This document shows positions 7,601 to 60,632 of a stretch of 64,000 nucleotides of DNA, one piece after another; position 1 is the first letter of the stretch; each line of letters starts with the position of its first letter. Below the pieces are notes generated by a model. It saw only the letters and a program-made list of their open reading frames with translations. It was not told where the DNA came from and did no database searches. Location: contig OZ024742.1 of assembly GCA_964016885.1 (NCBI GenBank), positions 291,586,001-291,650,000 of the forward strand. Reading direction: 5' to 3'. This stretch comes from Eledone cirrhosa (lineage: Eukaryota). Both the position numbers and the translations under genes were made by a program.

Positions 7601-7882
7601 TCCCACAATTAAGTTAAAAATGTACATCTACATATGCATACTGAACATTTGCATACTGAACATGTACATTTTTAACTTAATTGTTTAAGCGTCAGTCATA
7701 CAAAAGTGAGTTACAAACGAAACGAAATTTAATTTTGTTTCGTTATTTGTTTTTATCGTCTCCGCTGAACCGGTGCGTACTCACACTCTATGCAAATTAG
7801 TCTGCCCACTACTAATTTTCATAGAAAAAGCATATAACGATTTGTGCTTTTACAATTCTCCAGAAAAGCCGGTAGATAGGTA

Positions 7883-7927
7883 AATATTGCTGATGAGTTG
7901 TAACAACAACGAAACTAGTTCAATATT
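7883..7927 (+). ncRNA. Type I hammerhead ribozyme (family A)
   Basis: aatattg-CTGATGA-gttgt-aaca-acaac-GAAA-ctag-TT-caatatt. Palindromic stem III ACTAGT; extended stem I ttctccagaaa/tttctggagaa. Confidence 0.9.
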
Positions 7928-8350
7928 CCTTGTCTGGCTTTCTGGAGAATAGGGGGAAGGTGTTCCCCCGAAAAACCAGTATGACTCTAAAAACCGGTTT
8001 GTCTGTGTGTTTACATACAGAATAGCTGGGCCGCTCACTGTAAAGCGACCAGTGAAAGACTTGGTACACCTACATATGTATACGTGTGTGTATTCATATA
8101 CACACTAGTATTTCAGTATGCATATGTAGATGTACATTTTTAACTTAATTGTTTAAGCGTCAGTCATACAAAAGTGAGTTACAAATGAAACGAAATTTAA
8201 TTTCGTTTCGTTATTTGTTTTTATCGTCTCCGCTGAACCGGTGCGTACTCACACTCTATGCAAATTAGTCTGCCCACTACTAATTTTCATAGAAAAAGCA
8301 TATAACGATATGTGCTTTTACAATTCTCCAGAAAGGCCGGTAGATAGGTA

Positions 8351-8395
8351 AATATTGCTGATGAGTTGTAACAACAACGAAACTAGTTCAATATT
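8351..8395 (+). ncRNA. Type I hammerhead ribozyme (family A, second copy)
   Basis: Identical core to 7883-7927. Confidence 0.9.
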
Positions 8396-8492
8396 CCTTG
8401 TCTGGCTTTCTGGAGAATAGGGGGAAGGTGTTCCCCCGAAAAACCAGTATGACTCTAAAAACCGGTTTGTCTGTGTGTTTACATACAGAATA

Positions 8493-8769
8493 CCACCGCA
8501 AGGTGGTCGTGGAGGTGCCACGGCAAAAAAGCACCCAGCCCACACTGTAAAGTGGACGTGTAGGCGCCACGAAAAAGCACCCAGCACTCACTGTAAATGA
8601 AGTTGGTGTTAGGAAGTGCATCCAGCTGTAGAAACCAAGCCAGATCAGTTCCTGTATGAGCAAGGCATGGTCAGCCGACCAGACACTGCCCACAACAGGA
8701 CAACCCGTCTAACCCATGCTAGCGTGGAAGAACGGACGTAAAACGGTGATGATGATGATGATGATGATG
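8493..8769 (+). mobile_element. RTE 3'UTR fragment inserted into a retrozyme unit
   Basis: Reverse complement of 14761-15030, with a (GAT)n tail and TSD gaata at 8488-8492 and 8769-8773. Confidence 0.85.
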
Positions 8770-9504
8770 AATAGCTGGGCCGCTCACTGTAAAGCGACCA
8801 GTGAAAGACTTGGTACACCTACATATGTATACGTGTGTGTATTCATATACACACTAGTATTTCAGTATGCATATGTAGATGTACATTTTTAACTTAATTG
8901 TTTAAGCGTCAGTCATACAAAAGTGAGTTACAAACGAAACAAAATTTAATTTCGTTTCGTTATTTGTTTTTATATATATATATATATATATATATGATAT
9001 ATATATATGATATATATAATATATATATATGATATATATATATGATATATATAATATATATATATGATATATATAATATATATATATGATATATATGATA
9101 TATATATATGATATATATAATATATAATATATGATATATATGATATATCATATATATATATTATATATATCATATATATATATTATATATATCATATATA
9201 TATATATAATATATATATATGATATATATAATATATATATATATATATATATATATATATATGATATATATATATATATATATGATATATATATATATAT
9301 ATATATATATATATATAATATATATATATGATATATATAATATATATATATGATATATATAATATATATATATGATATATATAATATATATATATGATAT
9401 ATATATATAGATATATATATATGATATATATATATATATATATATATATATATATATATATATATATATATATATATATATATATATATATATATATAAT
9501 ATAT

Positions 9505-57080: not shown

Positions 57081-58380
57081 TTAACTGTATACTTTGTGAA
57101 AAGTCCTATGGAATTTATGCAGGCAGATAGAAAACAAATCAGTACGTCTATTTATTATAGAATCTAGGTTAGAGATAATGGTAAATTTTTCATTTAGGCA
57201 GAGATTACAGATTTTAGATAGAGAGCTGTTCAAGTATGAGGATGCAGAAGAAACCTTCTTCCAAAAGATGGTATATTTAATGTTTTTGTCTTTCAAGGAC
57301 CATATGAGTTCTGAGAGAGCTGTGTTGGTTCTTTTAAGTTTGTATTTGAAAGATGAATGATGATTATAGAGACGAGCTTTAAAAGAGGTGGAAGTGGAGC
57401 CAAAATAGGTGAAGGAATTGGTGCTAGTTATCATTTTACATTCATAAATTAAGTTTTTATCGAGACAATGGTTGTTGAGAGGACATTTATTTTTAATGCG
57501 GCAGTTGCAATTAGAGAGATTATTAATGAGTGACCTAGTGTTATCTATAGAAGGAATTGGATTGGAGAAGTTGTTTGCGATAGGAATAATAGGAATAATA
57601 GTTTCTTGATTTAGAGTTGGATTATGAACATTTAGCGAAGTTGTGTTTGACGTTGTATTTGGGTTTACAGAAGTTAGCCTAGGGTTTACAATGACGTCGG
57701 GAGTACTATTACTGTTATTATGAAATTCAATGTTGGAAGGAAGAGATTTAGTATTTAGTATTTTATTGTTGTGTTTAGAGATGATGTTGGAAATATTGGA
57801 GGATGTAGAATAAGAAAATTTGATGGTGTGTTTGTTAAATATTTTACTATAGATATGTGAGGGAGGGAAGCATTTATTTAAGGCACTAAAAAATAATTTA
57901 GGAATATTGTTATTAATAGAGATGGAGAAAGGAGCATTATACCAGATTATGTTTTTGTATCTAGGTCTTTTATTAAAATTATTGGAATGATCATGATTAA
58001 TTATGCTACTGTAAGTTTTTCTAGAATTTGTTTCTTTACTATATTTGATTTTATCTGGATAGCCGGCTTTAGAAAGTGCGTTATTATAGTAATTGGCGTT
58101 AGCATCAAAGATGTTTTTATTAGAAGATATGTTAGATATTCTTTTTCCAATATTACTAACTATAGCATTCTTGATATTGGTAGGATGGTTAGATTTAAAG
58201 TTAACATAATTTAGGTTCTCATTGTTTTTATGGTAAGGGTAATATAGGCCAGTGTCAAGATTAAGAGATACATCCAAGAAATTAGCTAGTTTGATACTAT
58301 TATCAAATTCAATTTTTAGGTTATGTTGGTTAAAGAGATTACGTATATTGTTCTTAATAATATTAAGGTTAACTATATTG
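57081..58380 (-). CDS. PLE-3 partial ORF (RT C-terminus, linker, GIY-YIG), open but 5'-truncated
   Basis: NFLDVSL, SNHP, AGY, IIWYNAPFS, CNCRIKNKCPLNNHC, LIY..YFGSTSTSFKARLYNH, CNLCLNE, CLH. Confidence 0.8.
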
Positions 58381-58393
58381 CAATATGTTCTCC

Positions 58394-58464
58394 TGTTTTA
58401 TCTGATGAAAACACAAATATTATTGCATGATGATGTTTGTTTTTGAAATGCGCATAATAAAATA
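58394..58464 (+). ncRNA. Type I hammerhead ribozyme (PLE-3 pLTR)
   Basis: tgttttat-CTGATGA-aaacacaaatattatt-gc-atgatgatgtttgttttt-GAAA-tgcgca-TA-ataaaata; palindromic stem III ATGCGCAT. Confidence 0.85.
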
Positions 58465-58624
58465 CATGGAACTCCTTTAACCATCTTTTGATCTTATATT
58501 ATGTATACTCCAGTCCTACAAACTGTAGAGTGCTTCTTATCCGATATCTGCATTGCTTTATTGTACTACAATAAAACTCACCTCCTACATATATATATTT
58601 ATATATATATATATATATTTATAT

Positions 58625-60225
58625 ATAAGTATGTATGCATACGTACATACATATATGTATACACACGTACAGTAGCATGCATATATATATATATATATAT
58701 ATATATACATATACATATACATATATACATACAGGTACACATACATATATGCACGCATCAGTTTAGCGGACGCTTATTATAACGCCGCTTTGTTCGTTTG
58801 TAAACAAACTGAACAGCCTGAATTTATACCATACGGTGTTAAGGCAACCACGTCACCTTTTTGTTCAACACTGACACAGGAACGATGTACTAGTTTCAAG
58901 CTTGTTAGCTATCATCAGCACCGTTTACCCATCTGCCAGATAGTTGAACGTTCGAAAGTATATACTTTCCTTATGAAAATTAACGGCTGAGCAGCCTAAT
59001 TTGCATATTGAGTGAGTTAAATCGGTCAGGCATACCGAAAACGATAAGTTGAAAAAAAAATGAAAACGAAATTTCATTTCTCACTCTTAGTATGGCACTT
59101 ACTTAAATGTAAGTATGTATGTATACGTACATACATATATGTATACAGACGTACAGTAGCATGCATATATATATATATATATATATATATATACATATAT
59201 ATATACATATACATATATACATACAGGTACACATACATATATGCACACATCAGTTTAGCGGACGCTTATTATAACGCCGCTTTGTTCGTTTGTAAACAAA
59301 CTGAACAGCCTGAATTTATGCCATACGGTGTTAAGGCAACCACGTCACCTTTTTGTTCAACACTGACACAGGAACGATGTACTAGTTTCAAGCTTGTTAG
59401 CTATCATCAGCACCGTTTACCCATCTGCCAGATAGCTGAACGTTCGAAAGTATATACTTTCCTCATGAAAATTAACGGCTGAGCAGCCTAATTTGCATAT
59501 TGAGTGAGTTAAATCGGTCAGGCATACCGAAAACGATAAGTTGAAAAAAAAAATGAAAACGAAATTTCATTTCTCACTCTTAGTATGGCACTTACTTAAA
59601 TGTAAGTATGTATGTATACGTACATACATATATGTATACAGACGTACAGTAGCATGCATATATATATATATATATATATATATATATATACATATACATA
59701 TATACATACAGGTACACATACATATATGCACGCATCAGTTTAGCGGATGCTTATTATAACGCCGCTTTGTTCGTTTGTAAACAAACTGAACAGCCTGAAT
59801 TTATGCCATACGGTGTTAAGGCAACCACGTCACCTTTTTGTTCAACACTGACACAGGAACGATGTACTAGTTTCAAGCTTGTTAGCTATCATCAGCACCG
59901 TTTACCCATCTGCCAGATAACTGAACGTTCGAAAGTATATACATTCCTTATGAAAATTAACGGCTGAGCAGCCTAATTTGCATATTGAGTGAGTTAAATC
60001 GGCCAGGCATACCGAAAACGATATGTTGAAAAAAACATGAAAACGAAATTTCATTTCTCACTCTTAGTATGGCACTTACTTAAATGTAAGTATGTATGTA
60101 TACGTACATACATATATGTATACAGACGTACAGTAGCATGCATATATACATATATATATATGTATATATACATATATATATAAATATACATATATACATA
60201 CAGGTACACATACATATATGCACGT
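58625..60225 (-). mobile_element. Retrozyme-like array, family B (~485-492-bp units, ~3.3 copies); HHRs at 58883-58923, 59375-59415, 59860-59900
   Basis: Tandem units homologous to 49316-49994, with a variable internal TA/CA tract and an identical HHR core in each. Confidence 0.88.
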
Positions 60226-60632
60226 GTACATACTTATATTTAAGTAATAGCCGTACTAAGAGTGGGAAATGAAATATCGTTTCATTTTTTCCGTTTATCG
60301 TTTTCGGTGCACCCGGCCGATTAACCCACTCGATATGCAAATTGGGCTACTCAGACGTTAATATGCATAAGGTAAGTATATACGTTCAACAATCTGGCAG
60401 GAAGGTATACGTTGCTGACGGTAGCTAACAAGCTTGAAACTAGTACAGCGTTCCTTTGTCAGTGTTGAACAAACGAGCAACGGTGGTTGCTAGACACTAC
60501 AGCTTAATACGGGATGTTTGTTTACAAACACACCGAGCATTATAATAAATGTTCGGTGAATCCATACGTGCATATATATATGTGTGCATGTATGTATATA
60601 TATATATACATACTACTGTACGTCGGTATACA
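60226..60632 (+). mobile_element. Diverged family B monomer, inverted relative to the array; HHR at 60410-60450
   Basis: cgttg-CTGACGG-t-agct-aaca-agct-t-GAAA-ctag-TA-cagcg; octamer at 60335-60342. Confidence 0.8.

Follow-up and report, generated by a model that had tools for sequence, protein, structure and literature searches.

Hammerhead retrozymes of Eledone cirrhosa with a putative hybrid snRNA-type promoter

A stretch of 64,000 nt from the 3.0-Gb assembly of Eledone cirrhosa (contig OZ024742.1, positions 291586001-291650000; called the window from here on) has a GC content of 25% and contains short tandem repeats of three families, A, B and C, each full unit of which includes a hammerhead ribozyme (HHR). 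Upstream of the ribozyme lies a common box, and this box and the motifs that follow it resemble the small nuclear RNA (snRNA) promoters of the same genome. We propose, with a probability of roughly 0.5, that a superfamily of at least six families and more than 40,000 ribozyme cores captured a host snRNA promoter, in a hybrid form with a U6-type box on a U1/U2-type core, and spreads it via an RNA circle made by the ribozyme.

Retrozyme units in the window and in the genome

The units are short and non-coding, are arranged head to tail, and have one type I HHR each, which bears out their identification as non-LTR (long terminal repeat) retrozymes in an earlier note on this DNA (the original prediction). 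From one predicted cleavage site to the next, the family A unit has 468 nt (7921-8388); the units of B, which lies on the minus strand in the window, have 485-492 nt, and that of C has about 426 nt. Identity over aligned columns is about 66% between A and B, about 68% between A and C, and 85% between B and C. The longest open reading frame (ORF) starting with ATG encodes 27 amino acids in A, 55 in C and 140 in B, where it is antisense and runs through a microsatellite, in agreement with the predicted lack of coding capacity. No LTRs were found at the unit ends; primer-binding sites and polypurine tracts had no explicit search. The following features were found in the window:

7605-7645, minus strand: inverted 41-nt piece of family A (unit positions 192-232) at the 5' end of the A array, a 5' inversion of the type known from Penelope-like elements (PLEs)
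7650-8973, plus strand: family A array of about 2.2 units of 468 nt with two HHRs; its 3' end, at unit position 304, runs into (TA)n
7789-7800, plus strand: first A box, TATGCAAATTAG, as at -76 to -78 of host U6, U6atac and MRP genes
7805-7838, plus strand: A segment at the position of the proximal sequence element (PSE) and TATA-like CATATAAC; the invariant CA is kept, and the match to the TCAG of U1/U2 genes is poor
7872-7943, plus strand: first A type I hammerhead, core at 7890, predicted cleavage after GUU at 7920
8257-8268, plus strand: second A box, TATGCAAATTAG
8340-8411, plus strand: second A hammerhead, predicted cleavage after 8388
8493-8768, plus strand: foreign 276-bp insert with an (ATG)n tail, which interrupts the third A unit and is outside the retrozyme proper
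21767-22090, minus strand: 5'-truncated A copy from the 3' half of the HHR to unit position 304, with no box and no complete core
49317-49994, minus strand: family B copy of about 1.5 units ending in (TA)n; box 49734-49723, core 49645, predicted cleavage after GUA at 49615
58616-60224, minus strand: family B array of about 3.3 units of 485-492 nt; boxes starting at 59984, 59499 and 59007, cores at 59895, 59410 and 58918; layout box, TCAG (+16), TATA (+42)
60225-60632, plus strand: family C copy, head to head with the B array; box 60334, core 60415, predicted cleavage after 60445

Within the box, the octamer ATGCAAAT is found at 7790, 8258, 49733(-), 59006(-), 59498(-), 59983(-) and 60335, and precedes the CTGA core by 100 nt in A, 88 nt in B and 80 nt in C; the sites and distances given in the original prediction were recovered. 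Some of its entries were revised. The A array indeed has a tandem 468-nt unit, but its span is 7650-8973, including the 276-bp insert, and the 41-nt inverted piece lies upstream of it. The copy at 21767-22090 does belong to family A, but it is truncated at the 5' end and has neither the octamer nor CTGATGA.

Every full unit contains CTGA(T/C)GA, a stem II with the loop AACA, GAAA, a palindromic stem III ACTAGT, and a GUU or GUA cleavage site, so that the predicted single type I HHR with this stem III and loop II was found again. Its description as minimal is true for stem III, but stem I is long and bulged, and the ribozyme elements sit inside it. An HHR had also been assigned to the third variant: the C copy in the window does have a type I HHR, but its core at 60415 is altered to CTGACGG (A9>G), while most C copies have CTGACGA. 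A U-U mismatch at the base of stem II is present in B and C. The Rfam model HH9 matches A with 38.6 bits and B with 18.5 bits, both below the gathering score of 52. Across families pairing is kept with changing letters in 77 of 88 pairs of stem II and in 90 of 110 pairs of stem I, a count biased upward because the cleavage site was chosen to maximise stem I.

A pattern for the window-type ribozyme matched the genome 38,815 times, and its reversed control did not match at all. A second pattern, which combined the octamer with a ribozyme with a different stem III, gave 2,785 matches (control 1) and revealed four further, more diverged families, D to G, which keep the layout, are older, and are present as partial tandems and inversions. 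Of the 24 representatives from this pattern, L125 and L135 were not counted, because the (T/G)AG flank is missing and the ribozyme stands in another context; both probably match by chance or are of the PLE type. A third, octamer-free ribozyme pattern had 7,682 matches (control 379), and in 50 loci obtained with it the box was present in most D copies with an intact upstream region and absent from several other HHR families, which are PLE-type by context, and from a 311-bp family. Therefore, the box marks one superfamily and not all hammerheads. The exact module of box, TCAG and TATA, which excludes A and most C, occurs 19,051 times (control 0). The segment of box and PSE upstream of the ribozyme is itself tandemly duplicated in D (about 33 bp; L121-L149) and E (about 40 bp; L152, L159, L161). 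Pieces of family A were also found in sequence contigs of two other organisms (29 of 30 and 16 of 30 bins), together with one tandem joint; they are uninformative on circles.

The upstream box and the host snRNA promoters

Host genes were sampled for U6 (29 of 48 matches), U6atac (8 of 15), RNase MRP (1 of 1), U2 (18 of 48) and U1 (12 of 42), and collapsed by eye to a small set of five promoter groups of RNA polymerase III (Pol III) and nine of RNA polymerase II (Pol II). The box TATG(C/G)(A/T)AAT(T/G)AG is present in all five Pol III promoters, i.e., those of U6 (L171, L172, L173), U6atac (L213) and MRP (L238), where its ATG lies at -76, -77, -78, -77 and -77, respectively, and TATA at -30. 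Three of the five have the exact ATGCAAAT, and two have one mismatch. The box was absent from all 14 dispersed U6 copies and from the seven further U6atac copies shown; in three copies from clusters, it is separated from the gene by an insertion. Nor was it found in the nine U1/U2 promoter groups; in the seven groups tested, none was present within 500 nt. All nine have TCA(G/A)T at -56 to -58 and an AT-rich TATA-like stretch near -31. The host U1, U2 and U6 genes lie in tandem clusters (U2/U1 loci L186-L188, L233, L201-L206).

The letters around the retrozyme octamer follow the host box: among the 22 representatives, T at -1 is present in 21, A at +9 in 20 and G at +10 in 19. T plus AG surround the octamer in 16 of the 22, versus 17 of 54 other octamers, a null set that includes retrozyme fragments. 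Downstream of the box, a matrix built from U1/U2 promoters only has its best score exactly at box+16 in 14 of the 22 representatives when 63 offsets are scanned, namely in B, C, two of three D, four of nine E, five of six F, and G, though not in A. In contrast, its score at this position is negative in all five host Pol III promoters. The CA at box+17/+18 is invariant in 20 of 20 aligned sequences, although it was outside the search pattern. A TATA-like word follows at box+40 to +45 in 16 of the 22 representatives (loose pattern). Its distance to the box is thus 40-45 nt, compared to 46-48 nt in the host Pol III genes, and it lies about 26 nt after TCAG, as in U1/U2 genes; a TCAG core at this U1/U2-type distance before the TATA-like word is present in B, C, D, F and part of E, and absent from A. 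The composite promoter score is 10-15 for B, C and most intact D, with a null 95th percentile of 9.7.

Compared to the host snRNA promoters, the retrozyme box therefore belongs to the Pol III class, while the TCAG core and the spacing from PSE to TATA belong to the Pol II class. A box upstream of the PSE core departs from the U1/U2 type (0 of 9 host groups), and it adjoins the PSE position instead of lying at a distal enhancer position. It may be the target of a POU protein, as assumed in the original prediction, or belong to the footprint of SNAPc. The combination of a U6-type box with a U1/U2-type core was not found in any host gene examined. Models anchored at TATA and at TCAG both place the transcription start near box+72 (plus or minus 2); this position falls within the 5' arm of stem I, 39-59 nt ahead of the cleavage site. 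In the window, the predicted starts are near 7862 (A), 58934 (last B unit) and 60407 (C).

A promoter of their own had been proposed for the units in the original prediction. Judged by the match to the host U6/U6atac/MRP and U1/U2 promoters, it is quite probable that they carry one of the snRNA type. That it is a self-contained promoter used by Pol II is a version to which we incline only slightly. Pol II would be preferred to Pol III by about 2:1 because of the TCAG core, the spacing, and the internal runs of five to nine T that insertions cross. The units contain T5 twice (A), T9 (B) or T6 (C), and similar runs end the host U6 and MRP genes. Pol III terminates at T runs; accordingly, these internal runs depart from a Pol III type 3 gene, while the box conforms to it. 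In insects, the choice of polymerase is set by the PSE sequence (PMC1761439).

In the window, the 311-bp family forms a tandem array at 30765-32839, whose arms are inverted and whose units are about 100% identical; its type I HHR has the palindromic stem III ACGCGT. It has no octamer, and it has CCAG and TATAAG at similar spacing. The composite promoter score of this array and its relatives (L302, L306, L298) is 2.9-8.9, below the null 95th percentile.

Insertions, arrays and Penelope-like elements

Insertion ends were tallied in 140 loci (L001-L120, L239-L258) after de-duplication by flank. The 3' ends are concentrated at two sites per family: unit positions 228-235 and 300-307 in A (40 of 46), 220-223 and 276-279 in C (44 of 52), and 272-283 and 336-339 in B (19 of 34, with five more in a microsatellite and five representing alignment breaks). 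The sequence that follows them is (TA)n-like in 40 of 46 cases in A, 43 of 52 in C and 25 of 34 in B. The 5' ends are scattered, and an inverted partner is present in 40 of 58 (A), 24 of 51 (C) and 10 of 33 (B) cases, both arms being counted. Insertions run past the T runs and span several units. Since they stop within a unit, extend across the cleavage site and include the promoter that precedes it, a circle or an uncleaved multimer must have served as template. In a check for 5' ends at the cleavage site, four of 129 distinct post-cleavage segments were without the 5' half of the ribozyme, a count that is biased because loci were picked via ribozyme or whole-unit queries.

Most of the small arrays among the 14 analyzed are near-clonal, and some have array-specific alleles. 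For example, 17 units over two inverted arms of one array differ by 0.0007, and five units of another have seven private alleles in common. This fits repeated copying of one monomer. Two arrays of four units differ by 1.2-1.6%. Long, satellite-like arrays of 30 to at least 52 units are present at C1:5738325-5752445, C1:95.64 Mb and C4:375.76 Mb. The B array and the C copy in the window are joined head to head at 60224/60225, and B/C pieces adjoin A arrays at L008 and L014; such joints may be template jumps by one shared reverse transcriptase (RT) or nested insertions.

The window also contains frameshifted PLE copies of the Hydra clade at 17118-19651, 35923-42574 and 52419-58590, which have HHR-bearing pseudo-LTRs (pLTRs) in direct or inverted orientation and end in (TA)n. 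The main PLE has the Hydra-clade motifs RW, DKT, CxCX5C, CxxC and CxH and targets (TA)n. The clade was assigned by motifs in comparison with published ones (PMC8557442); a protein-cluster atlas gave only unnamed RT-like clusters, Pfam recognised none of the four PLE fragments, and named RT homologues were found in octopods only (39% and 53% identity). Hydra-type PLE copies likewise have two clusters of 3' ends, with 10 of 20 copies each. The two-site 3' ends offer a handle on PLE priming. It had been suggested that the units are copied by the RTs of the neighbouring PLEs. The integration anatomy is indeed of the PLE type; however, these neighbours are frameshifted and share no significant sequence similarity with the units (best E 0.17). 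A broken 3' part of a Neptune-like PLE with its own HHR at 24388 lies at 23225-24570, so that more than one PLE is a candidate partner.

From the match to host promoters, the ribozyme motif and the insertion anatomy, which are directly seen, we infer a cycle of transcription and copying. A SNAPc-type initiation by Pol II near box+72, just inside the 5' arm of the ribozyme, would be followed by read-through of at least one unit. Cleavage at two ribozymes would then yield unit-length monomers, probably as a stem-III dimer, as in axolotl (PMC7229834). The monomer would be ligated to a circle by RtcB, for which such ligation is known in vitro in other species, and a Penelope-type RT with endonuclease (EN) would carry out target-primed reverse transcription round the circle into (TA)n sites. 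An snRNA promoter lies upstream of its own start and would be lost in ordinary retrotransposition. In a tandem or circular template, in contrast, the promoter of the next unit is inside the RNA, so that each multi-unit insertion would regain promoter and ribozyme.

Several further repeats are present in the window. A large inverted repeat at 9560-10095, ending in an HHR-like core at 9993 and (TA)n, is probably the remnant of a PLE pLTR. Fragments of RTE-type long interspersed nuclear elements with (ATG)n tails lie at 8493-8768, 14758-15030, 5333-6289 and 11448-13651, one of them with its 3' end inside the third A unit. SINE-like (short interspersed nuclear element) copies derived from tRNA are present at 3641-4468, 7176-7532 and 21444-21769 (Rfam tRNA matches of 28-32 bits). 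An Rfam scan of the whole window was dominated by microsatellite miRNA matches.

Alternative explanations and known systems

The nearest alternative accepts the retrozyme and its promoter and assigns transcription to Pol III, with a U6-type (type 3) promoter and rare read-through of the T runs producing full monomers. The box on all five host Pol III promoters and on none of the nine Pol II groups speaks for it, as do the A segment at the PSE position, which by eye is closer to U6 of L171 and L172 than to U1/U2, the position of the long 3' insertion end, which in A, B and C follows the longest T run by 2-8 nt, and the Pol III promoter of schistosome hammerhead repeats (PMC2220036). However, the distance from box to TATA is about 4-5 nt shorter than in all five host Pol III genes, most families have the TCAG core, and T9 in B and T6 in C should stop Pol III before the next promoter and ribozyme, whereas insertions cross them; we therefore regard Pol III transcription as unlikely, though still a serious contender. 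It is improbable that the block is kept for RNA-level reasons, as a hairpin or protein site in the circle, with the RNA stemming from host read-through. The octamer of A and B is predicted to form a hairpin with an arm downstream of it, and a palindrome is centred on the TATA word, so that the motifs had an RNA-structure explanation from the window alone. Whole-unit folding is strong, with z values of -11.2 (A) and -8.9 (B, to which a microsatellite hairpin contributes). According to a 2020 review (PMC7761336), promoters seem to be missing from retrozymes, and conservation of the box within families is not raised. Yet the predicted pairing partners of the octamer differ between the six families, and in the 19 remaining representatives 3-6 of 8 positions pair in the A/B hairpin register, compared to 7 of 8 in A, B and C; a C-U mismatch retained in A and B leaves the octamer letter intact; and the flanks of host genes, which are outside the mature RNA, have the same box at a fixed distance to TATA. 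RNAalifold returned no pairs at all for the alignment of 20 sequences and is uninformative, because even the ribozyme stems were missed.

The units might instead be pLTRs of an unsampled coding PLE that owns the promoter. Among vertebrate retrozymes, a relationship with PLE pLTRs is known: of 57 Xenopus families, 24 matched transposable elements, nearly all of them PLEs (10.64898/2026.07.22.740005). The insertion anatomy is PLE-like as well. This explanation is nevertheless very improbable: none of 132 3' ends continues at the fixed end sites into sequence resembling a PLE 5' untranslated region (UTR), no unit joined to a 5' UTR and an RT-EN ORF was present in the loci sampled, (TA)n lies between units and nearby PLE coding fragments (four loci inspected), the pLTRs in the window have neither the octamer nor similarity to the units, and the PLE-type HHR families from the octamer-free pattern have no octamer. 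We give hardly any weight to the idea that the octamer and TATA words are functionless passengers inherited from an AT-rich ancestor. The low GC content of the window, two unrelated octamers at 7561 and 7654, and the lack of excess conservation within families agree with it; against it stand the match to host promoters, which is position-specific and extends to letters outside the search pattern, the pattern controls of 0-1 versus 2,785 and 19,051 matches, counts that reflect family copy number, and TATGCAAATTAG, which with 12 nt is the longest exact word common to A and B (each ribozyme word has 9 nt; a common word of at least 12 nt occurred anywhere in 4 of 500 shuffles).

Several observations weigh against the proposed capture of a hybrid snRNA promoter. 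The box within families is no better kept than its flanks (rank 149 of 218 windows in A and 110 of 218 in B/C), whereas between families the octamer lies in the longest word common to A and B, a split outcome for the conservation test of the original prediction; most of the variation among copies of a family has probably arisen by decay once they were inserted. In family A, the U1/U2 matrix gives -7 at box+16, there is no clear TCAG, and the composite promoter score is 4.9, close to the null median (4.4). Among the 14 best-offset matrix scores, several are low (-0.2 to 3.2), the 22 representatives stand for only six families, and the invariance of the octamer in D-G is by construction, as it was part of the search pattern. 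The host sample is small, and in it the box is confined to Pol III promoters, a point against Pol II. Duplication after insertion is another possible origin of near-clonal arrays, and in the 52-unit arrays it is suggested by many shared variants. The frameshifts of the neighbouring PLE copies and the missing similarity count here as well. Among predicted Xenopus retrozyme dimers, one of nine cleaved in vitro (10.64898/2026.07.22.740005).

Non-LTR retrozymes and their link to PLEs have already been published (PMC7229834; 10.64898/2026.07.22.740005). The Eledone units resemble metazoan non-LTR retrozymes (Cervera and de la Pena, 2020; PMC7229834) in their short non-coding tandem units with one type I HHR, low GC content, strong self-pairing, weak stem III and co-occurrence with PLEs, and B and C share the U-U mismatch at the base of stem II with axolotl HHR_Amex2. 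They differ in unit length (420-550 nt versus about 170-400 nt) and in the promoter-like module, which is matched to host snRNA genes, while retrozymes seem promoterless in the 2020 review (PMC7761336). Circular RNA has been demonstrated for the metazoan elements (PMC7229834), whereas for the Eledone units it is predicted. Hydra-clade PLEs (Craig et al., 2021; PMC8557442) are similar in their (TA)n targets, partial tandems, 5' inverted copies, tail at one end and HHR; however, they are protein-coding, their tail has 30-40 bp compared to about 60-70 nt in the retrozymes, and the pLTRs of the local copies have no box and no sequence in common with the units.

Hammerhead repeats with promoters are known from two other animals. 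The promoter of the schistosome Sm-alpha repeats consists of tRNA-type A and B boxes. High copy number, an HHR and an own promoter are common to Sm-alpha and the Eledone units, but Sm-alpha has a Pol III promoter (PMC2220036, PMC2770079), and that of the units would be of the upstream snRNA type. Newt satellite 2, a tandem repeat with an HHR, is transcribed by Pol II from an internal promoter of the snRNA type (PMC2220036; PMC2114352). In Eledone, in contrast, the box adjoins the PSE position, is shared with host Pol III genes and is followed by a TATA-like word, and the arrangement is found in six diverged families. Newt satellite 2 has the vertebrate layout with a distal octamer. Its octamer plus PSE are said to have been described by Coats, Zhang and Epstein in 1994, with 5' ends in ovary reportedly about 47 nt before the cleavage site; the predicted start of family B is also 47 nt before the predicted cleavage. 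Therefore, a promoter-bearing hammerhead repeat is not new in kind. As far as our literature searches reach, the hybrid promoter layout, its persistence over six families and its match to the snRNA genes of the same genome are new; no cephalopod or mollusc case was found, subscription journals and the species tables of bioRxiv supplements being outside the search. The match to the snRNA promoters of the same genome gives exact predicted starts and three motifs, and thus makes the question directly testable in a second phylum. In addition, about 19,000 intact modules of box, TCAG and TATA, a number without A and most C, could act as competitors for SNAPc or as transcription starts throughout the genome. 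The read-through model, in which animal retrozymes seem promoterless (PMC7761336), gives no explanation of their high expression, and the newt result of 1994 is an exception to it. If our proposal is true, the internal snRNA promoter would, with newt satellite 2 and the Eledone superfamily, be a design that recurs among animal retrozymes, in contrast to this model.

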